Source: an uncultured Clostridia bacterium (GTDB taxonomy: Bacteria > Bacillota > Clostridia > Oscillospirales > Oscillospiraceae). Taken from it: 64,000 nucleotides of DNA. Shown piece after piece: positions 4,644 to 42,926 of the stretch; position 1 is the first letter of the stretch; the number at the start of each line of letters is the position of its first letter. The notes under the pieces were generated by a model. That model ran no database searches. It saw nothing but the letters and a program-made list of their open reading frames with translations, and was not told the DNA's origin. The position numbers were made by a program, and so were the translations under genes. The stretch is taken from positions 15,944 to 79,943 of the forward strand of contig CALADI010000016.1 in NCBI GenBank assembly GCA_937890525.1. Reading direction: 5' to 3'.

Positions 4644-4673
4644 AAAAAGCCGACTCTTGATCGAGCCGGCTTT
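4644..4673 (-). terminator. Terminator downstream of the small lipoprotein gene
   Basis: Minus strand aaagccggctcg...cgagtcggcttt hairpin (one bulge) followed by ttttgt. Confidence 0.55.
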
Positions 4674-4679
4674 GGGTGT

Positions 4680-5018: not shown

Positions 5019-5147
5019 GGAAGTTCACCTCATAGATAGACTGCCTATATGATAGGATGTTTTGGCGAAAAAAGCAAGGAGGAACTTGCGCTTTTTGCAA
5101 AGAGAAAGAAAAATTCCGCCGTCCCCCTAGGAAACCCCGGCGCATTG

Positions 5148-5156
5148 TGCTATAAT
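5148..5156 (+). promoter_or_regulatory. Extended -10 element upstream of thiI
   Basis: TGcTATAAT located 32 nt upstream of the thiI ATG. No convincing -35 element. Confidence 0.4.
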
Positions 5157-5187
5157 GCAACAAAAATGGTACGATGGAGGAACCAAT

Positions 5188-24091: not shown

Positions 24092-26341
24092 TTACATACG
24101 AATGCTGATCTGCTGCTCGGGGGCGTCCTCAGGCTTGAGGATGGCGCCGGCAGCGGGGAGGGTTTTGGCACGATATCGGGATTCGTTGACGATGCCGCTT
24201 TCCGACAGGGGGCAGGCGAAGTCAAACGCGGCTTTCTTCCGCAGGGACATGAGCCCCACGCCGATGGTGGATCGGGTGGTCTTGGGCATGAGCAGCGCCG
24301 AGGAGAAGATCAGCGCCCGTCCGTCGGTGGAGTAGGCAGCGATCTGCTGGTCGGTGTCCATGGAAAGCACAGTCCGCAGGGGGCTCTTGTCGGAATAAGC
24401 GCCGGTGAGCTTTTTGCGGTTGGTCTTGGTCTCGTAGGCGCTGAGGGGCACCTTAGCCACCTTGCCGTTGGCGAAGAAGAACAGCACGAAGCCGGTGTAA
24501 TCCCCAGCCGGGATCACGCTGACGATGCTCTCGCCCTGATCCATGGCCAGCTTCGTGGGCAGGAAGTCGCCCAAAAGGGATGCCTTGGAATCCTCAAAGT
24601 CGGAAAGCCGGGTCTTGTAGCATTGGAACCGGTCAGTAAACACCAGCAGCTCCGCTCGGTTGGTGGTTTCGATGGTGAAGTCCAGACTGTCCCCCTCTTT
24701 GAACTTCTGTTCACCGGACATCCGAAGACTCTGGGGGGTGATCTTCTTGAGATACCCCTGCTTGGACACGAACAGGTGAACGGGGTAGTCCGGGATCTCA
24801 TCAGCTTCCTCGGTGTCGAAAGGATCTTCCTCGGTCTGGTACACCAGCTCGGTCTTCCGGGGCTGACCGTATTTCTTGATGACCTGCTGCAATTCGCCGA
24901 TGATGACCTTTTGTAGGCGGCGGGTGCTTTTCAGCGTCGCTTGGAGGTCGGCGATCTCCTGTTCCAGATCCTCGATGGCACGGGTCTGCTTCAGGATGTA
25001 TTCCCGGTTGATGTTGCGCAGCTTGATCTCAGCCACGAAATTCGCCTGCACTTCGTCGATGCCGAAGCCGATCATCAAATTGGGCACGACCTCGCTTTCC
25101 AGTTCGGTCTTGCGGATGATGTCCACGGCTTTGTCGATGTCCAGCAGGATCCGTTCCAGACCCTTGAGCAGGTGCAGCCGGTCGGACTTCTTCTGGACTT
25201 GGAAATAGATCCTGCGCCGGACGCATTCCGTCCGCCATGCAGTCCACTCATCCAGAATTTCTCCCACGCCCATCACCCGGGGCATTCCGGCGATGAGGAT
25301 GTTGAAGTTGCAGGCGAAGCTGTCCTGCAAGGGGGTCATGCGGAAGAGCTTGGCCATCAGCTTGTCCGGCTCTGCGCCCCGCTTCAGGTCGATGGTCAGC
25401 TTCAGACCGCCCAGATCCGTCTCGTCCCGCATATCCGAGATCTCCTTGATCTTACCGGCCTTGATGAGGTCGGCCACCTTGTCCATGATGACCTCGGTAG
25501 AGGTGGAGTAGGGGATCTGGTAGATCTCGATGAGGTTGCCCTCTTTGAGGTAGCGCCACTTGGCCCGGAGCCGGAAGCTGCCCCGCCCGGTGGCGTAGAT
25601 CTCCCGCACCTGGGCTTCGTCGTACAGCAGCTCACCGCCGGTGGAGAAGTCGGGACCGGGCATGGTTTCCAGAATGTCATGCTCCGGGTTTTCCATCAAG
25701 GCGATGGCGGTCTTGCACACCTCCGCCAGATTGAACGAGCAGATGTTGCTGGCCATGCCAACGGCGATGCCCTGATTTGCCGATACCAGCACATTGGGGA
25801 AGGTGGTGGGCAGCAGGGACGGCTCTTTCATGGTGGCGTCGTAGTTGTCCACCATGTCCACGGTGTCGGAATCGATGTCCCGGAACAGCTCGGCGCAGAT
25901 GGGCTCCAGCTTGGCTTCGGTGTATCGGGAGGCGGCATAGGCCATATCCCGGGAGTAGACCTTACCGAAGTTGCCCTTGGAGTCCACAAAGGGGTGCAGC
26001 AGCGTCTCGTTGCCCCGGGCCAGACGCACCATGGTCTCGTAGATGGCGGCGTCGCCGTGGGGGTTCAGGCGCATGGTCTGACCCACGATGTTGGCAGATT
26101 TCGTCCGGGCGCCGTTGAGCAGATTCATCTTGTACATGGTGTACAGCAGCTTCCGGTGGGAGGGCTTGAAGCCGTCGATTTCCGGGATGGCACGGGACAC
26201 GATGACGCTCATGGCGTAGGGCATATAGTTGATCTCCAGCGTTTCGGAGATGGGCTGCTCCACGGTGGAGCCTACCAGCCCCATGATCCCTTCCGTGGAG
26301 ACCTTCTTCTTTTGGTTGTTATCCTGTTTTTTCTTTGCCAT
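24092..26341 (-). CDS. parC: Type IIA topoisomerase subunit A (ParC-like)
   Basis: 749 aa. Catalytic Tyr context [11 protein letters not shown]-terminal winged-helix/tower region and a C-terminal beta-pinwheel-size domain. The ParC versus second-GyrA assignment rests on size and synteny only. Confidence 0.8.
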
Positions 26342-26353
26342 GGTCTGATTCCT

Positions 26354-28333
26354 TTACGAGATATCCGCCAGATCCAGATATCTGGCGCCGTTTTCCGCAA
26401 TGAAGTTCTTCCGCTCGGAAAGATTGTCCCCCAGAAGTACATCAAAGTAGTGGGAGGTGCGCTCGGCATCCTCGGGCATGACCTTGATGAGCCGGCGGGT
26501 CTCGGGGTTCATGGTGGTCATCCACATCATCTCCGGGTCGTTTTCACCAAGACCCTTGGAGCGCTGGATGGAGACTTTTTTGCCCTCCAGCTTTTTCAGA
26601 ATATCCACCTTCTCCTGCTCGTTGTAAGCAAACCATGTTTGATCCTTGCAGGTGATTTCGAACAGGGGGGACTCTGCGATGAACACATAGCCGTTGCGGA
26701 TGAGGGTGGGGCACAGCCGGTAGAGCATGGTCAGCACCAGCGTGCGGATCTGGAAGCCGTCCACATCGGCATCGGTACAGATGACCACCTTATTCCAGCG
26801 CAGGTTGTCCAGATCGAAGGAAGACAGCTCCTTCGCTTTCTTGCCTTGGATCTCTACCCCGCAGCCCAAGACCTTCATCAGGTCGGTGATGATGGGGGAG
26901 GCGAAGATCTTGTGATAGTCTGCCTTCAGACAGTTGAGGATCTTGCCACGGATGGGCATGATGCCTTGGAATTCCGAATCCCGGGACAGCTTCACCGAGC
27001 CCAGAGCGGAATCGCCCTCGACGATGTACAGCTCCCGCTTGGCGGTATCCCGGCTGCGGCAGTCCACGAATTTCTGCACCCGGTTGGCGATATCCACCGA
27101 GCCGGACAGCTTCTTCTTCACGCTGGATTTGGTCTTTTCGGCGGATTCTCTTGCCCGCTTGTTGACCAAGATCTGCTCGGCGGCCCGGTCGGCGTCCTGC
27201 TTGCACTCCAAGAACCAGACCTGAAGCTGATCCTTCAAGAAGGCGGTCATAGCATCCTGGGTGAACTTGGAGTTGACACTCTTTTTGGTCTGATTCTCAA
27301 AGCAGCCGATGGTGGAGAAACAGTTGGTGATGATGACAAGAGAGTCCAGAATGTCCTGAAACAGGATCTTGCTCTCGGTTTTGGTGTATTTATTATTGTC
27401 CTTCAGATATTTGTCGAAGGCGGCGGTGAAGGCAGAACGCACCGCTTTGTCCGGGCTGCCGCCGTATTCCAGCCAGCTGGAATTGTGGTAGAATTCGGTG
27501 TGGCTGAGTTTCTTGGAGAAGCAGAAGGACACGGTGATCTTCAGCTTCATCTCCGGGCGGTTCTCGGCGTCCCGACCCCGGCGCTCGGTTTCCCAATAGA
27601 CGGGCATGGTGAAGGCGTCGTCCCCCACCAGCTCTTCCAGATATTGCTTGATGCCGCCGTCATAGCGGAATTCTTCTGTTTCGAACTTGCCTCCGGTCTG
27701 ATTGCGGAAGCGGAAAGTGATCCCGGGGTTCACCACAGCCTGACGGCGCATCACATCCCGGTAATACTCTGCCGGAATGTTGATGTCAGTAAAGATCTCC
27801 CGATCCGGCTTCCAATGGAAGCAGGAGCCAGTCTTTTTCCGGTCGGTAGGTTCTTTGGTCAGACCGCCGATGTTGCGTCCCTTTTCGAAATGAAGGGTGT
27901 ACTTGAACCCGTCCCGGTGGATCACCGCATCGAAGAAGGAGGAGGCATACTGGGTGGCACAGGAGCCAAGTCCGTTCAAGCCCAGAGAGTATTCGTAGTT
28001 TTCGCCGTTTTCGCCGTATTTGCCGCCGGCGTACATTTCGCAGAACACCAGTTCCCAGTTGAACCGCTGTTCTTTTTCGTTGTAGTCCACCGGGCAGCCC
28101 CGCCCGAAATCCTCTACCTCCACAGACTGGTCGGCGTAGCGGGTGACGATGATGGTATCGCCGTGTCCCTCCCGTGCCTCGTCGATGGCGTTGGATAGGA
28201 TCTCAAATACTGCGTGCTTGCAGCCTTCCAGATCATCCGAGCCGAAAATGACCGCCGGGCGCTTTCGCACCCGCTCCTCGCCCTTGAGCATGGAGATGCT
28301 GGAATTGCCGTATTGTTGCGTTTTTTTAGCCAT
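26354..28333 (-). CDS. parE: Type IIA topoisomerase subunit B (ParE-like)
   Basis: Start moved to MAKKTQQYGNSSISMLKGEERVRKRP. GHKL ATPase region and TOPRIM motif ELYIVEGDSALGS. Confidence 0.8.
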   Translation of the reverse strand: MAKKTQQYGNSSISMLKGEERVRKRPAVIFGSDDLEGCKHAVFEILSNAIDEAREGHGDTIIVTRYADQSVEVEDFGRGCPVDYNEKEQRFNWELVFCEMYAGGKYGENGENYEYSLGLNGLGSCATQYASSFFDAVIHRDGFKYTLHFEKGRNIGGLTKEPTDRKKTGSCFHWKPDREIFTDINIPAEYYRDVMRRQAVVNPGITFRFRNQTGGKFETEEFRYDGGIKQYLEELVGDDAFTMPVYWETERRGRDAENRPEMKLKITVSFCFSKKLSHTEFYHNSSWLEYGGSPDKAVRSAFTAAFDKYLKDNNKYTKTESKILFQDILDSLVIITNCFSTIGCFENQTKKSVNSKFTQDAMTAFLKDQLQVWFLECKQDADRAAEQILVNKRARESAEKTKSSVKKKLSGSVDIANRVQKFVDCRSRDTAKRELYIVEGDSALGSVKLSRDSEFQGIMPIRGKILNCLKADYHKIFASPIITDLMKVLGCGVEIQGKKAKELSSFDLDNLRWNKVVICTDADVDGFQIRTLVLTMLYRLCPTLIRNGYVFIAESPLFEITCKDQTWFAYNEQEKVDILKKLEGKKVSIQRSKGLGENDPEMMWMTTMNPETRRLIKVMPEDAERTSHYFDVLLGDNLSERKNFIAENGARYLDLADIS

Positions 28334-28992: not shown

Positions 28993-29436
28993 TCAAAGCA
29001 GGATGCCGGCAAAGCACTGGCATGCCAGCCACAAGGACAGGGCGCTGATGAATACGGCACCGTGAGCCTTGGGACCGGAGTTGACCCGATCCATCATGGA
29101 CTGGAACAGCCATGCAAGTACCGTGAAGGTAACGCCGCCGATGACGGCCAGCTTCAGCACATCCATCCCATGGACATAGCCTGCGGCCATGGGAAGCAGT
29201 CCGAAGGTCAGCGCCGACAGGAGTCCGACGCACACATAGCACCGCCGAGCGCCGGGGGCGAGGTAGTGCTCTGCCACCAGAACCATCAGTGACAGCGCCG
29301 CCAGATTCGGGATGTTGATCTGGGGCAGGATCACGATGGGAGCAAAGGTATTGACCAGTACGAACACCAGCATGGTCGCCGTTACGCCGGCGCACAGCAG
29401 GATGTTCAGCAGAAAAGGCTTATTCTTCATAACCAT
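28993..29436 (-). CDS. Polytopic membrane protein of unknown family, translationally coupled to rnfG
   Basis: The ATG overlaps the rnfG TAA stop (TAATG), with GGAGG 8 nt upstream. About 4-5 hydrophobic helices. No resemblance that I can see to RnfE, RnfA or RnfB. Confidence 0.6.
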   Translation of the reverse strand: MVMKNKPFLLNILLCAGVTATMLVFVLVNTFAPIVILPQINIPNLAALSLMVLVAEHYLAPGARRCYVCVGLLSALTFGLLPMAAGYVHGMDVLKLAVIGGVTFTVLAWLFQSMMDRVNSGPKAHGAVFISALSLWLACQCFAGILL

Positions 29437-29975
29437 TAACCTCCCCAAGATGTTGCGCTGGAAGAAGTATCCGCGCCGGTGACGAAGGCCACGGCGGAAT
29501 TGACACCCCGGGCGATGGCCTTGGAGGTGACGGTGGCGCCGGTGAGAGCATCCACATTGGTGCCGATCTCGGCAGAGCCGTCGGTGTTCAGGAACTGCAC
29601 CAAGAATTTGTAGTCGGTGAGGGCCTGCGCACCGAGACCGTAAGTCTCCTGCATCTGCTGGACCTGCATACCGGTCACGAGACCGTCATTGCTGACGCCG
29701 ACCAGCATGGCGATGTCCCCGGCATAGCCGTGGGGCACCACAAAGACGGCGTAGCCCGCATCGGACTTATAGGTGGAGCGGATGGTTTCGTCCTCTCCGG
29801 TGTACTCCTCAAGAGTGAACTCGGTGCTGCCGGGCAGAACGGTCTGCATCCGGTTGAGCAGGTACGCCTGCTCGTTGCTTTCCCGCAGACCTGCGGTGGC
29901 AGTGGTGACGCCGAACACCAGCAGGGCGCACAGGGCGATGATGACAATGGGAGTCAGCAGCTTAGACAGTTTCAT
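29436..29975 (-). CDS. rnfG: RnfG/NqrC-type FMN-binding subunit
   Basis: Start moved to MKLSKLL (GGAGG RBS). N-terminal TM anchor. FMN_bind domain with canonical flavinylation motif NVDALTGATVTSKA. Confidence 0.8.
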   Translation of the reverse strand: MKLSKLLTPIVIIALCALLVFGVTTATAGLRESNEQAYLLNRMQTVLPGSTEFTLEEYTGEDETIRSTYKSDAGYAVFVVPHGYAGDIAMLVGVSNDGLVTGMQVQQMQETYGLGAQALTDYKFLVQFLNTDGSAEIGTNVDALTGATVTSKAIARGVNSAVAFVTGADTSSSATSWGG

Positions 29976-30919
29976 GCCTGACCTCCTTTCTTGGCGGTGC
30001 CGAAACGGCGGGGGGCAGTATAGCGGTCCAGCGCCCAAGTCAGGGCGTTCATCAGCAAAATGGCGTAGGTAACACCCTCGGGATACAGACCGAAGTAGCG
30101 CAGCACCACCGTCAGCACGCCGCAGCCGATGCCGTAGAGGATCTGCCCCTTGGCGGTGACAGGGGAGGTGGCGTAGTCCGTTGCCATGAAGATGGCACCC
30201 AGCATCACACCGCCGCCGGTCAGGCTGTAGAGCATCCAAGCGATGGGGTTGCCGGTCTTAGAGAAGATCAGAGTCAGCACCGCTACGGTTCCCAGATATG
30301 CCACGGGGATCCGGGGGGAGATGACCTTGCGGATCACCAGATAGATGCCGCCCAGGATCAATGCGGCTGCGCTGACCTCACCGATACAGCCGGGGATATT
30401 GCCCAGGAACATATCCATCAGGCTCTCCTCGGGCAGAGCGGGCATGACCATGTGGTGCAGGGGGGTGGCAGCGGTGACACCGTCTACGCCCAGCGCGTTG
30501 AACCGAACCATGGAAACCGGCCAGATCACCATCATCAGCGCACGGGCGGTGAGGGCGGGGTTGAACACATTCTGTCCCAGACCGCCGGCCATCAGCTTGA
30601 CCACCACAATGGCGAACACGCTGCCCAGCGCCGCCTGATACAGGGGGATGGAAGCGGGCAGGGTCATGGCCAGCAGCAGTCCGGTGACCATGGCGGAGCA
30701 GTCCGGCAGGGTGTTACGCTTCTTGGTCAGCAGGGCGTAGAGCCATTCTGCGCCCATGGCGGACAGAATGCTCACCGCCACCACCAGCAGGCTGCGGGTG
30801 CCCAGCACCCATGTACCCACCGCCAGAGCAGGCAGCAGGGCGATGCACACATCCAGCATCAATCGGCTGGAGCGGAAATCCCCACGAATATGAGGAGAGG
30901 AAGCGACGGTTAGATTCAT
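29972..30919 (-). CDS. rnfD: RnfD/NqrB-type membrane subunit
   Basis: N-terminal SSPHIR motif, polytopic, flavinylation-site context VDGVTAATPL. 4-nt overlaps with both neighbouring genes. Confidence 0.85.
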   Translation of the reverse strand: MNLTVASSPHIRGDFRSSRLMLDVCIALLPALAVGTWVLGTRSLLVVAVSILSAMGAEWLYALLTKKRNTLPDCSAMVTGLLLAMTLPASIPLYQAALGSVFAIVVVKLMAGGLGQNVFNPALTARALMMVIWPVSMVRFNALGVDGVTAATPLHHMVMPALPEESLMDMFLGNIPGCIGEVSAAALILGGIYLVIRKVISPRIPVAYLGTVAVLTLIFSKTGNPIAWMLYSLTGGGVMLGAIFMATDYATSPVTAKGQILYGIGCGVLTVVLRYFGLYPEGVTYAILLMNALTWALDRYTAPRRFGTAKKGGQA

Positions 30920-32226
30920 TTGCTGTTTGCCTCCTTGATCATTTGTTTGCCCTTGCGGAAGGACTCCACCAACGGCAGCTTTCCGGGGCAGGTAAAGGCG
31001 CAGCTTCCGCAGCCCATGCAGTCCATCAGATTCAGACGCTCCAGTTCATCCGTGCGTCCGGCGTTGACATAGCGGTACATGTACAGCGGCTGCAGGTGCA
31101 TGGGACATACGCTGACGCACTTGCCGCAGCGCAGGCACACCGGATTCTCGGCGGCGCCGTTGCGGTCTTTCAGCAGGCAGAGGATGGAGTTGGTGGCCTT
31201 CACCACGGGAACGGACAGGTCGCTCTGAGCGATGCCCATCATTGGGCCGCCGCTGATGACCCGCTCGGTGCGGTCATTCAGCCCGTTGGCGGCCTCGATC
31301 AGATCCCGGAAGGGCGTGCCGATGCGCACCACGAAGTTCTGGGGAGAGGTGATGGCCTCGCCGGAGATGGTGACGATGCGCTGGATCAGGGGCATGCCCA
31401 GACGGACAGCCCGGTAGATCGCCGCAAAGGTGGATACATTAAAGACGGCGCACCCCACGCTGACCGGGAGCTGTCCCGGAGGGACTTCCCGCCCGGTGAC
31501 GGACTGGATCAGCTGCTTTTCGGAACCCTGGGGGTAGCGGGTGGGCAGGATCAAGATCTCGATCTCCGGGAAAGAACCGGAGAGGGACTTGATCTTCTCG
31601 ATGGCGGCGGCTTTGTTGTCCTCCACCGCCAGAACCACACGCTCGGGCTTGAGCACATGGCGCAGGATCATCATGCCCTCCAGCACATGCTCGGGGTTGG
31701 TGCGCAGCAGGGTATCGTCGGCGGTGATGTAGGGTTCACACTCGCAGGCGTTGGCGATCAGGGTGTTCACATGCCCCATGGAGGACAGCGCCTTCACATT
31801 GCCGGGGAAGGCTGCGCCGCCCATGCCCACGATGCCGGCTTCCCGGATGGTGTGCAGGATCTGGTCAGCGTCCAGTTCCTCGGTGGGTGTCTGGCAGAGC
31901 TGATACTCGATGGTGTTGTCCTGAAAATCGTTGTCGATGACGATGGCGTTGACCATCTGACCGTTGGGATGGGGACGGGGCTCTACGGCGGTGACGGTGC
32001 CGGACACGGAAGCGTGCACGGGGACACACAGACCTTCGCCGTCACCGATCTTCTGCCCGCGCAGTACCTTGTCTCCCACCTTTACCAAAGGCTTACAGGG
32101 AGCGCCGATGTGCTGGGACAGGGGGATGATGACCTGCCGGGGGATCACCGGGTCGGCAGGATTGGCATTTGCGGAAAGCTCCTTGCGGTATGCAGGATGG
32201 ATCCCGCCAAAAAACAGGTGTTTCAT
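30916..32226 (-). CDS. rnfC: RnfC-type NADH-binding Fe-S subunit
   Basis: RnfC_N barrel-sandwich N-terminus (GGIHP..K), SLBB/51-kDa-like region (GIVGMGGAAFP) and two ferredoxin motifs (CLRCGKCVSVCP, CMGCGSCAFTCP). Confidence 0.85.
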   Translation of the reverse strand: MKHLFFGGIHPAYRKELSANANPADPVIPRQVIIPLSQHIGAPCKPLVKVGDKVLRGQKIGDGEGLCVPVHASVSGTVTAVEPRPHPNGQMVNAIVIDNDFQDNTIEYQLCQTPTEELDADQILHTIREAGIVGMGGAAFPGNVKALSSMGHVNTLIANACECEPYITADDTLLRTNPEHVLEGMMILRHVLKPERVVLAVEDNKAAAIEKIKSLSGSFPEIEILILPTRYPQGSEKQLIQSVTGREVPPGQLPVSVGCAVFNVSTFAAIYRAVRLGMPLIQRIVTISGEAITSPQNFVVRIGTPFRDLIEAANGLNDRTERVISGGPMMGIAQSDLSVPVVKATNSILCLLKDRNGAAENPVCLRCGKCVSVCPMHLQPLYMYRYVNAGRTDELERLNLMDCMGCGSCAFTCPGKLPLVESFRKGKQMIKEANSK

Positions 32227-32248
32227 AGCTTCACCTCGTTCACTTTCT

Positions 32249-33283
32249 TTAGGTTCGGATCAGATCCCGGAAGCCGGGACTGTAATACTGCTCTCCTTGG
32301 GCGTCTACCCACATGGCATGGGCATCGAACTGGTCAAGGAGCGCCTGCCCCTGTTCCAGCGGAAGGACGAACAGGGCGGTGGATAGGGCGTCGGCCACGC
32401 CGGAATCCGGGCACACGATGGTCACAGACCGCCAGTATGCCGCCGGATACAGGGTGTCCGGGTCGATGATGTGGTGGTAGGGCACGCCGTCCACCACATA
32501 GTAGCGCTGGTAATCGCCGCTGGTGACCACGCTGCCGCCGGTCACATACAGGGTGTGCAGATAGCGGCTTGAATCGTCGGGGTCGGTTACCCCTACCACC
32601 CAAGGCGTCCCGCTGGGATCCTTGGGCCCGGTGGCGCACACATTGCCCCCTACGCTGATGAGCAGCCCGGTAGGTGCATCTTCGCAGACCCGCTGCGCCG
32701 ACCAACCCTTGGCCACCGCCCCCACATCCAGCCGGGCTTGGGGATCGGTGAGGAATACGGTGGAGGCGGCTTCGTCGATGACCAGACAGTCAAAGCCGGC
32801 ATGCTGGGCTGCGGCGATCAGATCGTCCTCCGGCGGGAGTGCGGCATGCGCCGGATCATCCAGCCCCGCGTCTCTTGCGTCGTGCCACAGCGCCAGCACG
32901 CTGCCCATGGTCACATCCACCCTGCCGTCGGTGGCTTCCCAAAGGGCTTTGCAGTCATTCAGCAGATCGATGATCCGCCGGTCTACCGTGACCGGGGCGA
33001 TCCCCGCCTGATCGTTTACGGTTTTCAGATTGTGGATGCCCTCATACTGGTTGTACACATCAAATAGCTGGTGGTATTCCAGGAGGGCATCGTGGATGGA
33101 CTGGGCTTTCTTCTGAAAAGTGCCTTCGTCGGCGTCTTTTCCCACGATGGTGGTCACGGTGTCGAATAGATCCAAAAAGGTAGCCTGATACTGGGTCTGC
33201 TCCTGGGCCTTGCCGGAGCATCCGGCAAGGTTCAGGGCAAGGATCAGACTCAGAGCAAGGATCACAGATTTACGCATGGTCAT
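32249..33283 (-). CDS. apbE: FAD:protein FMN transferase ApbE, lipoprotein
   Basis: Lipobox LNLAGCSG, then the typical ApbE start (TFLDLFDTVTTI; canonical proteins have MGT here) and conserved regions VAKGW and TSGDYQRY. Confidence 0.85.
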   Translation of the reverse strand: MTMRKSVILALSLILALNLAGCSGKAQEQTQYQATFLDLFDTVTTIVGKDADEGTFQKKAQSIHDALLEYHQLFDVYNQYEGIHNLKTVNDQAGIAPVTVDRRIIDLLNDCKALWEATDGRVDVTMGSVLALWHDARDAGLDDPAHAALPPEDDLIAAAQHAGFDCLVIDEAASTVFLTDPQARLDVGAVAKGWSAQRVCEDAPTGLLISVGGNVCATGPKDPSGTPWVVGVTDPDDSSRYLHTLYVTGGSVVTSGDYQRYYVVDGVPYHHIIDPDTLYPAAYWRSVTIVCPDSGVADALSTALFVLPLEQGQALLDQFDAHAMWVDAQGEQYYSPGFRDLIRT

Positions 33284-33311
33284 AATACGAGCGGTGCGCC
33301 TGCGGGAAGGA

Positions 33312-34379
33312 TCAGTTCCCGGCAGCCTTGGCGATCAGAGCCTGGAAGCCGCCCACGGCGATGGTGACGGAGGTGGCGAGGTCTGCATCGGTGGGAGCGG
33401 TCTTTTCGTTCACGGCGATCCCGGCAACATCAGCGGGGGTCTTGCCGGTGACATAGGCGGCGAAGGAAGCAGCCTGCTCGTTCCACTCGGCGATGGCGCT
33501 GCCCCATGCTTTCATGCCGTAGTCCTCGCCAAGCTGGTTCTTGGTGAGCAGGGGGGCAGTCAAATCGGTGGTGATGGCGCCAGCGGCGTCAAACTCCGCC
33601 TTGCCCTGCAGGGAGTCGATATAGCAGGAGGTGATGGTGTCGCCGTTCATGGTCATGGCGGTCACATCGGTGTCCAGCTGAGCAAGACCCTTGGTCTCGC
33701 CGTCGGCAGGGGTGCTCTTGGCGGTGCTGCTGATGGATGCAAGCTTCAGTACATCCCCGGACTGGGCGCCCAGATGGGCAGCGTTGGCAACGGCGGACTC
33801 GATGGCGGACACGAAGCCGCCCAGATAGATGGTAGCGGTGGAAGCCAGATCGGCATCAGCGGCCATGCCGGCTTCGGTGATGGCACCGCTACGGAGCTGC
33901 TCGACGGTTTTGCCCTGTGCGTAGGCGGCAAGAGCGGCGACCTGCTCGTTCCACTCATACTTGGCACCGCCGTAGGCCTTCATGCCGTAGGCTTCACCCA
34001 GTTCGTTCTTGGTGGAGATGGGGGCGGACAGATCGGAGGTGATCTTACCTGCGGCGTCGAACTTCACGGAAGCGGGGACGCTGTCGATGATGCAGGACTC
34101 GATGACGCCGTCATCGGTGACGGTAACGGCCGCCAGAGTGATATCGTACTTGATCTCACCTTCGGCATCGGCGGAAGCGCTGACGCTGTCGGAGATGCTG
34201 GGAATGATGGCAAGACCGGTCTTGACGGCGCCGGATGCCGGGGCGGCGGTGGGGGCGTCGGTCTCAGCGGGAGTGGTGGATTCGATCACGGGGCTGTAGA
34301 CCACCGTGGTGCCGGTGCAGCCGGCCAGCAGTGCCAGCATCATGGCCAGCACCAGGGCGATGGAAATTTTCTGTTTCAT
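33312..34379 (-). CDS. Lipoprotein made of two tandem FMN_bind-like domains
   Basis: Lipobox LLAGCTG. Two roughly 130-150-aa repeats (aa about 75-205 and 231-355) sharing TKNxLGExYGMKA, EWNEQ, GKT and DADLA(S/T)(T/S)(A/V)TI..GGF. The domain order mirrors the FMN_bind fold signature. Confidence 0.7.
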   Translation of the reverse strand: MKQKISIALVLAMMLALLAGCTGTTVVYSPVIESTTPAETDAPTAAPASGAVKTGLAIIPSISDSVSASADAEGEIKYDITLAAVTVTDDGVIESCIIDSVPASVKFDAAGKITSDLSAPISTKNELGEAYGMKAYGGAKYEWNEQVAALAAYAQGKTVEQLRSGAITEAGMAADADLASTATIYLGGFVSAIESAVANAAHLGAQSGDVLKLASISSTAKSTPADGETKGLAQLDTDVTAMTMNGDTITSCYIDSLQGKAEFDAAGAITTDLTAPLLTKNQLGEDYGMKAWGSAIAEWNEQAASFAAYVTGKTPADVAGIAVNEKTAPTDADLATSVTIAVGGFQALIAKAAGN

Positions 34380-34495
34380 TTCTAAACCTCCTGATTTCTT
34401 TTATTTCGTCTTATTATAAAAATGAAAGCCGTTTAATAGTGTATAATATGTTGCTTAATGTCTACTTACATATCCATTAATAATTGTTAAGATAG

Positions 34496-34527
34496 CAAAA
34501 GCCGGCGGCCGGACTTTGGCCGCCGGC
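34496..34527 (-). terminator. Terminator after the histidine kinase gene
   Basis: Minus strand gccggcggcc / ggccgccggc stem followed by ttttgc. Confidence 0.6.
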
Positions 34528-34532
34528 ATGGT

Positions 34533-35555
34533 TCAGCCGGGGGAGGAAGGGGGTTGGCGGGGGAGGGTGACGAAGAAGGTCGTCCCAACTCCCGGAGTGG
34601 ACTCCACACGGATGTCCCCGTGGTGATCTTCTACCACTTGAGCGGCGATGGCCAGCCCCAGCCCGGTGCCTTTTCCGGACTCCTTGGTGGTGAAGAAAGG
34701 GTCGAAGATGTGGGGCAGGATCTCCGGGGGGATGCCGCAGCCGGTATCGGACAGGCGGATGTGGACGCAGGTCTGGTCGAACCATGTATCCACATGCAGC
34801 GTCCCGCCCTCCGGCTCCATGGCGTGGAAGGCGTTGAGGATCAGATTCAAAAGAAGCTGAGCGATCTGGATCTCGTTGGCAGGGATCCGCTGATCCCAGC
34901 AGTTCAGCCCCAGCTTCACCTGCACCTGCTCCGGGCGGGCGGGGGCAGCCGCTTCCAGAGTTTTTCGAACCAGATCATCCGGAGAAATGGGGCGGATGAC
35001 ATCCCCGGAGCTTTTGCGGGACAGGTCGGACAATCGGGAGATGATCTGCTTTGCCTTGCGCGAAGCCGTGTAGATCTCCAGAATGTTGTCGTATAGCTCG
35101 GTTTCCTCGGGGGGCAGCTTTTCCAGCGCCATCATGGAGTAGCCCATGATGGGGGTGAGCAGGTTGTTGAATTCGTGGGCGATGCTGGAGGTCATGGTGC
35201 CCAGAGTCTCCAGCCGTTGGTGGTGGGCAAGCTGCTGCTGCTTGCGGATCAGTTCGTCCATGGCGGCATTCTTCTGCTCCAGATCCGTGATCTTGCTTCG
35301 GCTGCGGCTGAGTCTGCGGCTGAGCGTCAGCACCATGCCAAAGATGCCGGCGAAGATCAGCCCCAGATCCGCGGCGAGCCGCAGAGCGACGGCGTGCAGG
35401 GGCTTGCGGATCTGGTCAAAATGGGCGTAGTTTGCCATGACACGCTCAAAAGAGCGGCAGACATGGAAGCACAGACATACGCCCGTAATGACCAATAGGA
35501 CGGAAATGCCCATCCCAACGGCAAGGAACAGCCGGGAACGGTTGGTACGATTCAT
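34533..35555 (-). CDS. Sensor histidine kinase with a minimal extracytoplasmic loop
   Basis: Two TM segments separated by about 30 aa. H-box SIAHEFNNLLTPI, N-box LLLNLILNAFHA, G-boxes DTGCGI and GTGLGLAI. Confidence 0.85.
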   Translation of the reverse strand: MNRTNRSRLFLAVGMGISVLLVITGVCLCFHVCRSFERVMANYAHFDQIRKPLHAVALRLAADLGLIFAGIFGMVLTLSRRLSRSRSKITDLEQKNAAMDELIRKQQQLAHHQRLETLGTMTSSIAHEFNNLLTPIMGYSMMALEKLPPEETELYDNILEIYTASRKAKQIISRLSDLSRKSSGDVIRPISPDDLVRKTLEAAAPARPEQVQVKLGLNCWDQRIPANEIQIAQLLLNLILNAFHAMEPEGGTLHVDTWFDQTCVHIRLSDTGCGIPPEILPHIFDPFFTTKESGKGTGLGLAIAAQVVEDHHGDIRVESTPGVGTTFFVTLPRQPPSSPG

Positions 35556-36343: not shown

Positions 36344-36991
36344 ATGGGATTTCATTACGATTGGGATTTTCCTCTGCAATTTGTGTGGCTGCTGCTCTGG
36401 GGCGCAGCAGGGGTGACGGCTTTTGTCATCGGGATCGGAATTTGGCTGGTTAAGGCATGGTCGGTATACCGCATTGCCCGCCGCCGGGGGCTGAACAATG
36501 CGTGGCTGAGCTGGCTGCCTGTGGGACGGGATTGGATCTTGGGATCGATTTCGGATCAATACCAGTATCTCGTCCGCGGCAGAGTTCGCAACCGGCGCAA
36601 AGTGCTGGTGGGATTCTCCATCGCATCGTGCTGCACCGTTGTGATCGGTCTGATCTACGGCGTCTGGCTGCTGATGGATACGGCACTGACCATGGCGATG
36701 TATGGAGCGATGCCCGGATATACCCCGAATACGCTGCTGTTCCTGCCGCTTTTGCTGCTTGTAGGTGCTGCGGTGGAGATCGCGGCATATGTGCTGCGGT
36801 GCATCTGCAAATATGACCTGTACCGCTCCTGTGAGCCGTCCAGCGCCGTGCTGTATCTGGTGCTGGGCATCCTGTTTTCTCTGTGTGATGCCGTGTTCCT
36901 CTGGCTGTGCCGGAATAAGGATCAGGGCATGCCCCCCAGAAAGCCGGACCATCGTGCTTATCAGGAGCAGGCTGACCCCACCTATCTGTAA
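36344..36991 (+). CDS. Membrane protein of unknown function, co-transcribed with the response regulator
   Basis: 24-nt gap after the RR gene. Four or more hydrophobic segments. No motif recognised. Confidence 0.6.
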   Translation: MGFHYDWDFPLQFVWLLLWGAAGVTAFVIGIGIWLVKAWSVYRIARRRGLNNAWLSWLPVGRDWILGSISDQYQYLVRGRVRNRRKVLVGFSIASCCTVVIGLIYGVWLLMDTALTMAMYGAMPGYTPNTLLFLPLLLLVGAAVEIAAYVLRCICKYDLYRSCEPSSAVLYLVLGILFSLCDAVFLWLCRNKDQGMPPRKPDHRAYQEQADPTYL

Positions 36992-37080: not shown

Positions 37081-39099
37081 TCAGGCCTTTTTCTTCTTGG
37101 TCACCACAACGACCACCACGCCGATGACCAGAACCACCACCACGACGATGGCAACGATGGCGCCGGTGCTCAGACCGGAGGATGCATTCTGTTCAGCAGG
37201 CTCGGTGGCGGGCTGGGTGGCAGGCTCGGTAGCAGGCTCCGTGGCAGGCTCAGTGGGCTCTTCCCGCTGGGCGGCTTCCATTGCGATTCTGCCGCTGCCG
37301 TTGGCGGTGCCGTAATCCACGGTCAGACCGGGATACTTGGCACTCAGGGGAGAGTTGGATGCTTCCACAACGCCGTTGGGGAATGCCTGCACATAGTTGG
37401 CAAGCACCATGTAGTCTTCCATCACATAGTCCAGAACATTCACGGCACCGTCAAACATGCTGAAGCCGTCGCCCATATCCCGCAGGGTGTAGTTGTAGCC
37501 GGCAATGTTGTACTTGGCGGCAAGATCCAGATCATCCCATGCGCCGGTCTCCTTGTTGTAGATCTTCACATCGTGGACCCGGTAGCCGCCGGTGGGAGCG
37601 CCGATCCATACGCCCTTGTCATCCTTCTGGGTGGAATCGGGCCACTCGGTATCGATCTTGTAGGTCAGACCGGAAACCTGCAGGAAGCCGCCGCATTCCT
37701 CGCCGGTGCCGGCGGTACGGGCGCCCCACTCCAGAGCGTCCAAGATCTGCTGACCGGTGACGGTTTGCAGACATGCCACATTGCCGAAGGTGTGGATGCT
37801 CTTGCAGGTCAGGTAGGAGATATCGCCGGTGATGGCCTTGTTCCGGACGCCGCCGCCGTTCATCACGGCAACATCCACATCCAGATCCATGTTGTCAAAC
37901 AGATAGTACAGGGCATCTGCGCAGAAGTCGCCGGTGTTGGTCTCCTGACTGCGGACCAGACGGGCGTCGCCGTCATAGTTGTCCAGCGTCAGAGCGGTGG
38001 AGCCGATGACCACGCCCAGTTCCTCATTGACCTGTGCGATCCACTCGTCCTTGAGGGCCTGCACATCGTCATCGGGGTCGTACTCGAATTCGCCGGGGAT
38101 CACATCACAGGCCAGCTCGTAGCCCACGATCTGAGTCTCCTCGTTGCCCTTGTCATCCTTCTTGGGATTGCCGTTTTCGTCCAGAACCGGCTCGGTCAGG
38201 GCGTTGGCGGTGAAGAAGCCGTTCTCCACGGTGCCGTCGGCGTGGAGAACCACGACACCGATGTTGTCAAAATAGGAGCCGGTCTGCGCTACCACCACAG
38301 GCTTGCCTTCCTTGTCGTTCACCACATTGCCGACCAGCTCGGAATGGGAGTGACCGTCAATGAAAGCATCGAAGCCGGAGGTATTGGCAATGGTGGAGGT
38401 GCTGGTCCAAGGCTCGGAGGAGGGATCTACGCCCAGATGCCCCAGACCGACGATCTTGGTGGCGCCTTCTGCCTTGGCGTCGTCGATGGCCTTCTGCACG
38501 CTGGCGTACAGGTCGGCGCCGTCCTCGCCGCCGGCAATGCCGTAGATGTAGTTGCCCTGCTCATCCTGGAAGTAGGCGGGGGTGGACTTGGTGAAAGATT
38601 CGGGGGTCAGAACGCCCACGATCGCCACCTTCTCGGTGCCGCAGTCGAAGATCTTGTAGCTGTCCAGCACATTCTCGCCCCGGACGCCGTTGGCTTCTTC
38701 GTAGAAGTTGCAGTCGAGATAGGGGAATTCTGCCCACTCCTGCAGCGCCTTGCAGCCGTCCATGCCGTAGTCAAACTCATGATTGCCCAAGCTGGCCGCG
38801 TCGTATTCGGCGGCGTTCATCAGGTCGATCACATGCTTGCCCTTGTCCATGGAACCGAAAGCGGTGCCCTGAGCGTGGTCGCCGGCATCTACCAGCAGCA
38901 CATGCTCGTATCTGTCTTCGAGCTGATCCTTGATGTCAGCAAGGATGTCATAGCTCAGCGGGCCGTCGATGTAGCTGTGGACATCGTTGGTGTGCAGGAT
39001 CACGATGTCGTCAGACTTGGCATCTTCGGCCATGACGCTGGGGATCATCAGACTAAGCAACATGACCAGAACCAGCATCACGGAGATTTTTTTACGCAT
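37081..39099 (-). CDS. Surface-anchored bifunctional metallophosphatase/5'-nucleotidase
   Basis: Signal peptide. Metallophosphatase motifs ILHTNDVHS, DAGDH and GNHEFD, plus a 5'-nucleotidase C-domain. The C-terminus has a (T/Q)EPA repeat linker, a hydrophobic helix and KKKKA. Confidence 0.85.
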   Translation of the reverse strand: MRKKISVMLVLVMLLSLMIPSVMAEDAKSDDIVILHTNDVHSYIDGPLSYDILADIKDQLEDRYEHVLLVDAGDHAQGTAFGSMDKGKHVIDLMNAAEYDAASLGNHEFDYGMDGCKALQEWAEFPYLDCNFYEEANGVRGENVLDSYKIFDCGTEKVAIVGVLTPESFTKSTPAYFQDEQGNYIYGIAGGEDGADLYASVQKAIDDAKAEGATKIVGLGHLGVDPSSEPWTSTSTIANTSGFDAFIDGHSHSELVGNVVNDKEGKPVVVAQTGSYFDNIGVVVLHADGTVENGFFTANALTEPVLDENGNPKKDDKGNEETQIVGYELACDVIPGEFEYDPDDDVQALKDEWIAQVNEELGVVIGSTALTLDNYDGDARLVRSQETNTGDFCADALYYLFDNMDLDVDVAVMNGGGVRNKAITGDISYLTCKSIHTFGNVACLQTVTGQQILDALEWGARTAGTGEECGGFLQVSGLTYKIDTEWPDSTQKDDKGVWIGAPTGGYRVHDVKIYNKETGAWDDLDLAAKYNIAGYNYTLRDMGDGFSMFDGAVNVLDYVMEDYMVLANYVQAFPNGVVEASNSPLSAKYPGLTVDYGTANGSGRIAMEAAQREEPTEPATEPATEPATQPATEPAEQNASSGLSTGAIVAIVVVVVLVIGVVVVVVTKKKKA
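37197..37260. repeat. Imperfect 12-nt tandem repeat (about 5 copies) inside the 5'-nucleotidase gene
   Basis: Plus strand reads caggctcggtgg cgggctgggtgg caggctcggtag caggctccgtgg caggctcagtgg. It encodes EPTEPATEPATEPATQPATEPA. Confidence 0.8.
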
Positions 39100-39555: not shown

Positions 39556-39800
39556 ACAATTCCACAAAAAGGCAGTGAAGAGAAGAGTAGCTTTGCCAAA
39601 GCGGACAGAGAACCCCGGCAGCTGGGAAGGGGGACGCAGGAGCAGGGGGAACATGGTCTCGGAGCCGACCGGTCGATAGGTAGGCCGGTACGGGTGCGCC
39701 CGTCACCGCGCGAAGAGGCATCCTTCCGGGGATGCGAAACAAGGTGGTACCGCGTCAATTCTGTCGCCCTTGAGTGATTCAAGGGCGGTTTTCTTTTTTA
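39556..39800 (+). promoter_or_regulatory. T-box leader (tRNA-Met specifier) with terminator/antiterminator
   Basis: Stem I elements (GTGAAGAGAAGAGTA, AGAGA bulge, distal GCTGGGA). AUG codon in the context ggaacATGgtc. Conserved T-box sequence AAACAAGGTGGTACCGCG at 39737-39754. Terminator stem cgcccttga/tcaagggcg followed by gttttctttttt (39765-39799). Confidence 0.85.
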
Positions 39801-39812
39801 GGAGGATCTCAT

Positions 39813-41762
39813 ATGTGTGAAAAATGCAAAGGCAACTACTACATTACCACACCCATCTACTACCCCTCGGCAAAGCTGCACATCGGTCACAGCTACTGCA
39901 CCGTAGCCACTGATGCTATGGCCCGCTACAAGCGGCTTCAGGGCTACAATGTGATGTTCCTGACGGGAACCGACGAGCATGGTCAGAAGATCGAGGACAA
40001 GGCCAAGGAATCTGGCGTTACCCCCCAGCAGTTCGTGGATGATATCGTGCTGGGCGACCGGGGCGTGCTGGATCTGTGGAAGCTGATGAACATTTCCTAC
40101 GACCGGTTCATCCGCACCACCGACGATTACCATGTGGCGGCCATCCAGAAGATCTTCAAGAAGATGTACGACAAGGGTGATATTTACAAGGGTACCTACA
40201 AGGGCAAGTACTGCAAGCCCTGCGAGTCCTTCTGGACGGAGAGCCAGCTCAAGGACGGCAAGTGCCCCGACTGCGGCCGTGAGGTTCAGGACGCCGAGGA
40301 GGAAGCATACTTCTTCCGTCTGTCCAAGTATGCCGACCGGGTGCAGGATCTGCTGGAGAACACGGATTTTCTGGAGCCCAGAAGCCGGGTCAACGAGATG
40401 GTCAACAACTTCATCAAGCCCGGTCTGGAGGATCTGTGCGTATCCCGCACCAGCTTCACCTGGGGCGTGCCGGTGGACTTTGACCCCGGCCATGTGGTCT
40501 ATGTGTGGATCGACGCCCTGTTCAACTACATGACGGCGCTGGGCTTTGAGAATGACAAGTATGACGATCTGAGCAAGTTCTGGCCGGCGGATGTGCATTT
40601 TGTGGGCAAGGAGATCGTCCGCTTCCACTCCATCATCTGGCCCGCCATGCTCATGAGTCTGGATCTGCCCCTGCCCAAGAAGGTCTACGGTCACGGCTGG
40701 CTGAACTTCAACGGAGAGAAGATGTCCAAGTCTCGGGGCAATGTGGTGGATCCCTATGTGCTGGCGGAGCGCTTCGGTGTGGATGCCCTGCGGTTCTTCC
40801 TGCTGCGCACCTTCCCCTTCGGCTCTGACGGCAACTTCACCAACGAGCTGCTGATCTCCACCATCAACACCGACCTTGCCAATGATCTGGGCAATCTGGT
40901 CAGCCGTACCGTGGCCATGGCCCAGAAGTACTTCGGGGAACATCTGCCTGCTCAGCAGACCGAGGATCCTGCGCTGGATGCACCGCTGATCGAGATGGTG
41001 TCCACGCTGCGGGACCGTTATGAGGAGCAGATGGAGCACTATGCTTTCCAGAATGCTCTGAACGAGATCTTCAAGGTCATCTCCCGTGCCAACAAGTATA
41101 TCGATGAGAATGCACCGTGGGTGCTGGCTAAGAGCGAGGAGAACCACCCCCGTCTGGCCAGAGTGCTGTACAATCTGCTGGAGACTGTGCGAATCTGCGC
41201 CGGCCTGCTGACTCCCTTTATGCCTGCCACCGCTGAGGAGATCAACCGCCGTCTGGGCAGCCCCGCTGCGGATTGGGACAGCCTGAACCGCTATGGTATC
41301 CTGCCGGCGGAGGCTGCTACTGTCGCGGGCCCTGTGCTGTTCCCCCGGATCGATATGGAGAAGGAACTGACTGCGCTGGAGGAGCTGTCCGCTCAAGCGG
41401 CAGAGCCGGAGGAAGATCCTCTGCCCGAGCCCCTGCCCCAGATCGACTTCGAGACCTTTGAAAAGGTGGAGATGACGGTGGTGAAGGTGGTTGCCTGTGA
41501 GGCGGTGAAGAAGAGCAAAAAGCTGCTGAAGTTCACCCTGAATGACGGAACCAAGCAGCCCCGGCAGATCCTGTCCGGCATTGCCCAGTTCTACAAGCCG
41601 GAGGAACTGGTGGGCAAGACGCTGGTGGCGGTGACCAATCTGGCGCCCCGGAAGATGATGGGGCAGGAGAGCTGCGGCATGCTGCTGAGCGCAGAGCGTG
41701 GGGACAAGCTGAATCTGGTGATGTTGGATGATGCCATTCCCGCCGGAAGCCGTCTGGTGTGA
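39813..41762 (+). CDS. metG: Methionine--tRNA ligase with C-terminal tRNA-binding domain
   Basis: Start at the ATG after GGAGGA (downstream of the leader terminator). HIGH (KLHIGHSY), Zn knuckles (CKPCESF, CPDCGRE), KMSKS, and a C-terminal Trbp111/EMAP-like domain. Confidence 0.95.
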   Translation: MCEKCKGNYYITTPIYYPSAKLHIGHSYCTVATDAMARYKRLQGYNVMFLTGTDEHGQKIEDKAKESGVTPQQFVDDIVLGDRGVLDLWKLMNISYDRFIRTTDDYHVAAIQKIFKKMYDKGDIYKGTYKGKYCKPCESFWTESQLKDGKCPDCGREVQDAEEEAYFFRLSKYADRVQDLLENTDFLEPRSRVNEMVNNFIKPGLEDLCVSRTSFTWGVPVDFDPGHVVYVWIDALFNYMTALGFENDKYDDLSKFWPADVHFVGKEIVRFHSIIWPAMLMSLDLPLPKKVYGHGWLNFNGEKMSKSRGNVVDPYVLAERFGVDALRFFLLRTFPFGSDGNFTNELLISTINTDLANDLGNLVSRTVAMAQKYFGEHLPAQQTEDPALDAPLIEMVSTLRDRYEEQMEHYAFQNALNEIFKVISRANKYIDENAPWVLAKSEENHPRLARVLYNLLETVRICAGLLTPFMPATAEEINRRLGSPAADWDSLNRYGILPAEAATVAGPVLFPRIDMEKELTALEELSAQAAEPEEDPLPEPLPQIDFETFEKVEMTVVKVVACEAVKKSKKLLKFTLNDGTKQPRQILSGIAQFYKPEELVGKTLVAVTNLAPRKMMGQESCGMLLSAERGDKLNLVMLDDAIPAGSRLV

Positions 41763-42792: not shown

Positions 42793-42807
42793 CTTGTTGT
42801 AAATAAT

Positions 42808-42926
42808 GTTTCGGACGACTGACGGAAATTGGTGGGTCACCACCGGGAAATCCGAAACGGAGCAAAATGCCGACCGTCTGGGCGCACTTGTCTTTCGGGA
42901 CGGGTGCGCCCTTTATGCGTTTTTTA
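42808..42926 (+). promoter_or_regulatory. ZTP (pfl-motif) riboswitch with intrinsic terminator expression platform
   Basis: P1 gtttcgga/tccgaaac. Core GACGACTGACGG...GGTGGGTCACCACCGGGAAA. 3' subdomain CCGACCGTCTGGGCGCA, where GACGG/CCGTC can form the pseudoknot (covarying with consensus GGCG/CGCC). A 13-bp terminator stem (42880-42911) uses the GGGCGCAC of the aptamer 3' end and is followed by tttatgcgtttttt. Confidence 0.7.

Follow-up and report, generated by a model that had tools for sequence, protein, structure and literature searches.

A candidate half-Rnf conduit from NADH to the outer face of the membrane in Oscillospiraceae: an RnfC-RnfD-RnfG operon with a repeat lipoprotein and a small membrane protein

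What can an operon do that keeps the Rnf complex's subunits RnfC, RnfD and RnfG and lacks the remaining ones? This question is raised by positions 28993-34379, on the minus strand, of a 64-kb stretch of DNA from an uncultured Clostridia bacterium of the Oscillospiraceae (contig CALADI010000016.1); the whole stretch was analysed and is referred to as the window. Six tightly packed genes, all on the minus strand, encode in this order a lipoprotein, the flavin transferase ApbE, RnfC, RnfD, RnfG and a small membrane protein designated M145. RnfE, RnfB and a canonical RnfA are missing and, therefore, the operon alone cannot couple ferredoxin to NAD+. The preliminary description of this DNA, which held that the locus by itself is not an ordinary ferredoxin:NAD+ oxidoreductase, is upheld in this respect. 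Judging from the sequence, we lean towards reading the operon as a half-Rnf conduit, which would keep only the branch of Rnf that connects NADH to the outer face of the membrane. The genes and boundaries of the operon are the following (FMN, flavin mononucleotide; FAD, flavin adenine dinucleotide).

33312-34379, minus strand: lipoprotein gene, 355 amino acids, lipobox LLAGC, no Pfam or NCBIfam match
32249-33283, minus strand: ApbE (FAD:protein FMN transferase), PF02424 E=2e-61, itself a lipoprotein with the lipobox LAGC
30916-32226, minus strand: RnfC, TIGR01945 523 bits (cut-off 246), with RnfC_N, Complex1_51K, SLBB and Fer4 domains
29972-30919, minus strand: RnfD, PF03116 E=1e-110, TIGR01946 291 bits (cut-off 207), motif VDGVTAATPL
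29436-29975, minus strand: RnfG, 179 amino acids, FMN_bind E=4e-16, motif DALTGATVTS
28993-29430, minus strand: M145, small membrane protein of 145 amino acids with five predicted transmembrane helices
28958-28986, minus strand: terminator-like hairpin at the end of the operon, 13-bp stem with 10 G-C pairs
34501-34527, minus strand: terminator-like hairpin of the upstream histidine-kinase gene

In operon order, the genes are separated by 28 nucleotides, 22 nucleotides, two 4-nucleotide overlaps and 5 nucleotides, and an AGGAGG ribosome-binding site (34387-34392) lies ahead of the first one, the lipoprotein gene. These coordinates and spacings confirm six co-directional genes with 4-nucleotide overlaps or gaps below 30 nucleotides. 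Terminators had been assigned to both ends: hairpins are present at both, with the upstream one ending the kinase gene. The start of M145 is most likely the ATG at position 29430, because of the 86 homologues of 144-146 amino acids and of a GGGGAGG ribosome-binding site; the product would have 145 amino acids, as in the homologues, and the 147 amino acids given at first are corrected. When the six products were scanned with Pfam and NCBIfam, ApbE, RnfC, RnfD and RnfG were matched, whereas the lipoprotein and M145 gave no family even at E<=10.

To search for the missing subunits, E. coli RsxA, RsxE and RsxB served as tblastn queries, together with two clostridial RnfA sequences. RnfA, RnfE and RnfB gave no match in the window nor within ~10 kb of 60 related loci, each of which carries both RnfC and M145 and which were collected from 45 species-representative genomes, from metagenomes and from ENA/NCBI contigs. 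The same queries detected rnfE, rnfA and rnfB directly after rnfG in the 43 Oscillospiraceae loci used as canonical controls, which came from 80 loci returned by a metagenome scan seeded with RnfC, and Pfam recovered two Rnf-Nqr genes and an RnfB-type gene in one canonical locus. Among the window proteins, no Pfam match to the PF02508 RnfA/RnfE pair with its four cysteine ligands was obtained. M145 occurs together with RnfA/RnfE in none of the 103 classifiable loci. The absence of the RnfA/RnfE core and of RnfB from the locus, as originally noticed, is thus well founded.

The arrangement is widely conserved. The order lipoprotein-ApbE-RnfC-RnfD-RnfG-M145 is kept in 52 of the 60 loci. The other eight deviate: three lack only apbE, and in five the lipoprotein gene is missing upstream, either alone or along with apbE. 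Starting from M145 homologues, 45 loci were reached in species-representative genomes. These are without exception metagenome-assembled genomes (MAGs), bear labels such as Oscillospiraceae, Faecousia and Clostridia, and come from human, ruminant and other animal guts. The species of the window is also represented on contigs of 2.0-2.2 Mb. The closest canonical loci provided 18 RnfA clusters, none of which maps to contigs of this species; their hosts are Oscillibacter, Dysosmobacter, Vescimonas, Neopoerus and other Oscillospiraceae.

Two loci on metagenome contigs, L072 and L111, seemed to join ApbE or the lipoprotein to a canonical rnf operon, with ApbE and the beginning of RnfC on the half-Rnf side. 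Both were read as chimeric assemblies and discarded. L111 is 99% identical to a half-Rnf locus and switches to a canonical-type RnfC partway through rnfC, while the 98% match of L072 (on the same contig as L144) to a canonical locus begins only at position 858; the matches at 98-99% cover only the canonical part of L072 and only the half-Rnf part of L111. Annotation could be led astray by such chimeras, which also hint that samples may contain the two locus types side by side.

The subunits that are kept have intact cofactor sites. RnfC contains two CxxCxxCxxxCP motifs, whose eight cluster cysteines are all conserved in 49 of 49 sequences, and the protein of the window is 40% identical to E. 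coli RsxC. RnfD has 315 amino acids and PF03116 as sole Pfam domain, with no fused NAD-binding domain, and its covalent-FMN threonine (...A-T-P-L) is present in 52/52 sequences. In RnfG the G-A-T is kept in 53/53. Compared with the flavinylation motif D-x-x-[ST]-G-A-[ST], the DALTGAT of RnfG fits and RnfD reads DGVTAAT. The transferase ApbE is encoded by 54 of the 60 related loci; three otherwise complete ones are without it. The identities first assigned to RnfC, RnfD and RnfG are supported by the family scores listed above and by these conserved cysteines and threonines. The preliminary description had also considered decayed genes unique to one genome; the cofactor sites are intact and the arrangement recurs.

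On the other hand, the RnfC and RnfG proteins of these loci are set apart from those of canonical relatives. A neighbour-joining tree places the RnfC sequences of the half-Rnf loci in a monophyletic clade that includes no RnfC of a canonical locus. RnfG in the window has the FMN_bind domain and the TGAT motif and scores 69.7 bits with the RnfG model TIGR01947 (cut-off 102). Three other half-Rnf RnfG proteins score 61-70 bits versus 92-116 bits for canonical Oscillospiraceae RnfG (n=6), a difference of about 40 bits. This drift fits a changed partner of RnfG on the outer face.

The description of the first product as a two-domain lipoprotein is sound: the lipobox LLAGC is followed by two repeats of ~150 amino acids which match each other at hhalign E=3e-51. 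Each repeat has one invariant cysteine (C96 and C252), and the AlphaFold2 model reaches a predicted local distance difference test score (pLDDT) of 88.7. A single-repeat profile matches PDB 2kzx (E=9.4e-8), with the C-terminal half of the repeat covered; the part of 2kzx that is matched scores 26.1 bits with the Pfam FMN_bind model, above the cut-off of 22. The DAISGATI of 2kzx aligns with DLASTATI in repeat 1 (T183) and DLATSVTI in repeat 2 (T339), and the conserved threonine of the lipoprotein thereby comes to lie on the threonine that is flavinylated in the SGAT motif. Over 45 loci, the consensus is D-L-[AS]-[ST]-[ST]-A-[T/S]-I in repeat 1 and D-L-x-[AST]-[ST]-V-[T/S]-I in repeat 2; the last Thr/Ser is present in 45/45 sequences in both repeats, and the Gly is replaced. 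Overall, the motif reads D-L-x-[STA]-[ST]-[AV]-[TS] versus the canonical D-x-x-[ST]-G-A-[ST], in which G-to-A and A-to-V changes are reported to keep ~50% flavinylation (PMC12052999). It is plausible that the repeats are divergent FMN_bind-like domains with a putative flavinylation site. Of the earlier designation of the lipoprotein as FMN_bind-like, a remote and transitive link via 2kzx stands; a Pfam match and a canonical motif do not accompany it.

The number of repeats varies among the loci: 55 have two, L008 (1648-3192) has three, and L053 (4025-6079) and L054 (~4085-6079) have four. The lipoproteins of these last three loci resemble the multi-flavinylated proteins described for Gram-positive bacteria. 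An IscU-like identity of the lipoprotein, raised by insignificant alpha+beta matches in Foldseek (E ~0.1), was considered and rejected, given that each repeat has only one conserved cysteine. A large protein database searched with the 2kzx fragment returned three matches with an uninformative genomic context. In a Clostridiales MAG (L055:7772-8487), relatives of 2kzx appear as two short adjacent open reading frames (ORFs), each matching only the C-terminal half of the repeat; this pair may be a fragmented gene.

The small membrane protein ending the operon had been described as unrelated to Rnf. M145 belongs to a family of its own, with 371 representatives at 50% identity that are mostly of ~145 amino acids, with some shorter or longer fragments, and has two near-invariant motifs, R-C-Y-x-C and Q-C-F-x-G. 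Its AlphaFold2 model (pLDDT 79) has five helices. HMMER found no matches among PDB sequences, and the best Foldseek matches in the PDB are the RnfA chains 8ahx_A and 7zc6_A, which are not significant (E=0.8 and 2.1). A first hhalign comparison with a six-sequence RnfA/E alignment gave a probability of 2.7%, with 2 of 200 shuffles reaching the score. When 59 M145 sequences were aligned with 31 canonical Oscillospiraceae RnfA sequences, the probability was 70.9% (E=3.8e-5, score 37.0) and none of 100 column-shuffled controls reached this score (maximum 25.1); with RnfE the probability was only 0.35%. The alignment places residues 12-143 of M145 on residues 46-191 of RnfA, read as RnfA helices 2-6, with the last two helices of both proteins as the confident core.

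M145 lacks helix 1 of RnfA and the GICPF and TTNC cysteines, which in RnfA are ligands of the membrane [2Fe-2S] cluster. The positive-inside pattern suggests that its N-terminus is inside and its C-terminus outside, a predicted topology that would agree with the published one of RnfA once helix 1 is removed. Therefore, M145 probably represents an RnfA remnant (helices 2-6) kept for structural reasons, rather than an unrelated protein, as first described, or a working RnfA. The preliminary description had associated a diverged RnfA or RnfE at this position, together with an rnfB elsewhere in the regulon, with an ordinary split Rnf. The remnant is probable, and M145 has no helix 1, no cluster cysteines and no RnfE partner; therefore the remnant does not turn the system into an ordinary Rnf. 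An RseC or NqrM-type maturation factor was considered as well and rejected, on the basis of the absence of a Pfam match and of the five transmembrane helices.

The published electron path of Rnf runs through RnfB, the [2Fe-2S] cluster of RnfA/E, RnfG-FMN, RnfD-FMN/riboflavin, the RnfC Fe-S clusters and RnfC-FMN to NAD+ (PMC12174285). A one-way conduit between NADH and the surface is proposed because the operon keeps the segment from NAD(H) to RnfG-FMN and adds external flavin-type domains. In this mechanism RnfC would take electrons from cytoplasmic NADH through its FMN and then two [4Fe-4S] clusters, RnfD would conduct them across the membrane and the covalent FMN of RnfG would accept them outside. 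Then, RnfG would reduce the lipid-anchored lipoprotein, with its two to four divergent FMN_bind-like repeats, which in turn would pass the electrons to an extracytoplasmic acceptor. ApbE, itself a lipoprotein, would load the covalent flavins, and M145 would most likely be a structural partner of RnfD and RnfG. The return branch to the cytoplasm (RnfE, the [2Fe-2S] cluster of RnfA/RnfE and RnfB) would be gone from the locus, with M145 as sole leftover. The path from NADH through RnfC, RnfD and RnfG to the lipoprotein, as put forward at first, gains partial support: it agrees with the published one and with the occurrence of an RnfG with two additional FMN_bind domains. The gene content and its conservation, the cofactor motifs, which are intact, the remote homologies and the absence of RnfE, RnfA and RnfB from the locus are observed; assembly of the subunits, flavinylation of the lipoprotein, the direction of flow, the acceptor and any ion coupling are what this proposal would add.

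This additional flavin capacity is found in two sister loci. In L071 (5457-7193, plus strand) and L068, RnfG has 578 amino acids. Pfam recognises three FMN_bind domains in it (E=4.6e-54), whose SGAT motifs are canonical, and the C-terminal region that follows them gives a weak but colinear match to the model of the lipoprotein repeat. A closed loop from ferredoxin to NAD+ offers no evident use for additional flavin domains on RnfG, which are sensible for outward transfer. Both L068 and L071 are GC-rich half-Rnf loci; in L071, the R-C-Y-x-C cysteines are missing from M145 and the motif of the lipoprotein reads D-I-T-[TS]-G-C-T.

Homologues of genes from a known extracellular electron transfer system share the operon in many relatives. 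Thirteen of the 38 loci with enough upstream sequence carry a NusG_II gene and a PF07456 gene immediately upstream of the lipoprotein gene. PF07456 corresponds to EetB, a FAD-binding component of the ECF type that acts in FAD export and is needed for the flavinylation of PplA in Listeria, and eetB is usually accompanied by eetA (PMC9973259). We infer that the NusG_II gene is a putative eetA homologue. In relatives carrying both genes, the pair may supply FAD for ApbE. No eetA or eetB was found in the 64-kb window. The likeness to the electron transfer system of Listeria, already suggested from the window, is strengthened by these upstream homologues.

The neighbouring two-component system is a candidate regulator of the operon. 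The features that bear on its regulation are the following.

34380-34500, minus strand: AT-rich promoter region with a conserved box CTTAACAATTATTAATGG (34474-34491), ATTAAG (34454-34459), a -10-like element and AGGAGG
34533-35555, minus strand: histidine kinase with HisKA and HATPase_c domains, two transmembrane helices and almost no external loop
35636-36319, plus strand: OmpR-type response regulator with Response_reg and Trans_reg_C domains, divergently transcribed

Of the 38 loci whose sequence extends 3 kb or more upstream, 14 have the kinase gene no further than 1.5 kb upstream of the lipoprotein gene, and the response regulator accompanies it wherever the contig extends far enough. The response regulator is 72-90% identical across loci, above the values for the structural genes. 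Upstream of the lipoprotein gene there is a shared promoter pattern, CTTAAyAAtTATTAAG followed after ~14 nucleotides by ATTAAG and a -10 element. Of 15 aligned sequences (the window and the 14 loci with an adjacent two-component system), 13 retain all three features, namely box, spacing and -10 element, even some in which the proteins are only 44-60% identical. The boxes are likely a binding site of the OmpR-type regulator, and the adjacent regulator probably switches the operon on through the TTAAG-type box. Rfam found no riboswitch at the operon.

Directly downstream of the response-regulator gene, a gene at 36344-36991 (plus strand) encodes a 215-amino-acid membrane protein without Pfam match, and a similar, unannotated gene of 206 amino acids adjoins the regulator in L001 (2410-3030). 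The operon is flanked by housekeeping genes, namely secG, subunits of the topoisomerase IV/gyrase type and a 5'-nucleotidase. The product of 37081-39099 (minus strand) is a 5'-nucleotidase/metallophosphoesterase that is exported, carries TEPA-type repeats in a C-terminal run and has a membrane anchor. Further away, a T-box leader (Rfam RF00230, 101.7 bits) at 39566-39774 (plus strand) precedes the ORF 39774-41762 (plus strand), with which a minus-strand ORF without Pfam match (39798-41396) overlaps, and a ZMP/ZTP riboswitch (RF01750, 65.3 bits) is found at 42805-42890 (plus strand). Very long ORFs lie opposite real genes, such as the 1085-amino-acid ORF at 24941-28198 (plus strand), antisense to the topoisomerase genes; this is a usual artefact of high-G+C DNA.

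Several observations weigh against a half-Rnf conduit. No terminal reductase or acceptor gene is conserved beside the operon in the related loci. The lipoprotein has no direct FMN_bind match and the link runs only through 2kzx; its motif has a non-canonical residue in place of Gly and, in repeat 2, of Ala as well; its repeats give an hhalign probability below 1% with the local RnfG family, and a Foldseek search of the PDB with the whole lipoprotein model returned nothing significant and no FMN_bind structure. The M145-RnfA link has an hhalign probability of only 71%, and a redox role of M145 is doubtful because C64 and C67 are missing in some members. In addition, RnfE, RnfA and RnfB, or a complete rnf operon, may be present elsewhere in the genome, outside the window. 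The hosts themselves raise a further objection: Candidatus Faecousia is described as a group of gut and rumen acetogens with an 'Rnf complex' (PMC12541428, PMC11338639), a description given without subunit-level data.

The last two points lead to the explanation of the locus as part of a split or branched but otherwise ordinary Rnf, in which RnfC, RnfD and RnfG would join RnfE, RnfA and RnfB encoded elsewhere, the lipoprotein would be a side branch and M145 an accessory or assembly factor. The search for the missing subunits covered the window and ~10 kb around the related loci only, Candidatus Faecousia is reported not only to have but also to express an Rnf complex (PMC12541428, PMC11338639), RnfC and RnfD score well above the Rnf family cut-offs and bifurcated paths were proposed by Meheust et al. 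for Rnf with a multi-flavinylated RnfG (PMC8238504). However, in 43 of 43 canonical Oscillospiraceae loci those rnf genes that the contig includes are contiguous, in the order rnfCDGEAB, whereas the half-Rnf operon is ended by a terminator after M145 in more than 50 loci. The separate RnfC clade and the drift of RnfG from its model also speak against a shared complex, and a derivative of RnfA inside the operon, devoid of the cluster ligands, is hard to square with the need for an intact RnfA. A split Rnf is consequently considered unlikely.

Other explanations accept the truncated path and differ in its direction or purpose. Electrons might flow inward, from reduced extracellular carriers or partner organisms via the lipoprotein flavins and then from RnfG to RnfD and RnfC, to reduce NAD+ in support of an acetogenic lifestyle. 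The physiological flow in canonical Rnf is indeed from RnfG through RnfD and RnfC to NAD+ (PMC12174285), the hosts have been characterised as gut and rumen acetogens that depend on hydrogen (PMC12541428) and the sequence leaves the direction of flow unfixed. Nevertheless, the step from flavin to NAD+ is uphill unless a low-potential donor or an ion gradient drives it, and the characterised Gram-positive systems with ApbE and multi-flavin lipoproteins all export electrons (PMC8238504, PMC9973259), which leaves inward uptake as a very unlikely account. Redox maintenance of the envelope is a further alternative: the flavin chain would feed surface enzymes encoded elsewhere, or detoxify oxygen or oxidants at the surface, with the envelope-sensing two-component system as the switch. 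The intramembrane-type kinase and its OmpR-type regulator beside the operon in 14 of 38 loci, together with the conserved promoter box, are compatible with it, as is an operon in which no acceptor gene was found, and many ApbE systems are listed in such roles (PMC8238504). But a partner reductase is linked to the operon in 0 of 60 loci, and this explanation, which we hold to be improbable, differs from the half-Rnf conduit only in the identity of the acceptor.

The half-Rnf conduit could have consequences beyond the locus. A more far-reaching possibility, which is rather unlikely, is that the half-Rnf is the only Rnf-derived machinery of Candidatus Faecousia and related uncultured Oscillospiraceae, putative acetogens that are abundant in gut and rumen, and that the 'Rnf' recorded for them in metagenomic surveys is a reversible, regulated wire between NAD(H) and surface flavins. 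If this were true, the bacteria would dump electrons to, or take them from, extracellular carriers or partner organisms, and the models of their energy conservation and hydrogen economy would change. These hosts are prevalent in gut and rumen and are scored as Rnf-positive acetogens by gene-orthology surveys, in which the rnfC, rnfD and rnfG genes of half-Rnf operons could inflate the calls. If the proposed mechanism holds, it would be a third route to power a Gram-positive surface flavin chain, besides Ndh2/quinone and the RnfD-NqrF fusions, and one made by halving an ion-pumping respiratory complex. The operon would also be an evolutionary intermediate in which RnfE and RnfB were lost and RnfA decayed to a five-helix remnant, and would bear on which parts of Rnf serve assembly and which serve electron transfer and ion coupling. 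Moreover, two protein families without a Pfam model, the lipoprotein repeat and M145, gain a functional context that can be tested.

No paper describing an RnfCDG-only operon was found in the literature. Truncated Rnf/Nqr systems for one-way flow are already published; what the locus would add is the RnfCDG-only operon with the lipoprotein and M145. Compared with canonical Rnf (RnfCDGEAB; 7ZC6, 8AHX, 9ERI), the half-Rnf operon has homologues of RnfC, RnfD and RnfG in the same C-D-G order and with all cofactor ligands, the same need of ApbE for the covalent FMNs and, in M145, a protein probably derived from RnfA. It differs in having no RnfE, RnfB or canonical RnfA, in an M145 devoid of the two cysteine ligands of the RnfA [2Fe-2S] cluster, in its diverged RnfG and in the added exported lipoprotein of several repeats. 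The Rnf systems with a multi-flavinylated RnfG and the Rnf of Methanosarcina, with the multihaem cytochrome MmcA, are alike in their outward branch to external acceptors. However, both keep the full Rnf and have the outward path as an extra, whereas the half-Rnf operon is without the ferredoxin-side branch.

In the survey of Meheust et al. (2021), RNF clusters are defined by RnfB and NQR/RNF-like clusters by an RnfD-NqrF fusion (PMC8238504; PMC11334425); the operon fits neither definition. The NQR/RNF-like systems of Meheust et al. (2021) and Huang et al. (2024) embody a similar idea, a partial Rnf/Nqr with one transmembrane path left, over which electrons pass one way from NAD(P)H to an FMN domain on the extracytosolic side (PMC8238504, PMC11334425). 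They consist, however, of two subunits, an RnfD-like protein fused to an NqrF-type PF00175 domain and without the flavinylated threonine, and an RnfG-like protein. In contrast, the half-Rnf has a separate Fe-S protein, RnfC, for the NADH input, keeps the RnfD threonine and includes the lipoprotein and M145. The hosts also differ, being mainly Actinobacteria and the candidate phyla radiation (CPR) for the NQR/RNF-like systems and Oscillospiraceae for the half-Rnf.

The Listeria system (Ndh2, demethylmenaquinone, EetA/EetB, FmnA, FmnB and PplA) crosses the membrane by Ndh2 and a quinone, whereas the half-Rnf would do so by RnfC and RnfD. In the general annotation, none of the locus genes has domains of Ndh2 or of demethylmenaquinone synthesis, at which no search was aimed. 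Unlike those of PplA, the lipoprotein repeats of the half-Rnf are missed by the FMN_bind model and have a non-canonical motif. On the other hand, both systems belong to Gram-positive bacteria and combine an ApbE-type transferase with a repeat lipoprotein, NADH is the likely electron source in each, and homologues of eetA/eetB are common to many half-Rnf loci.

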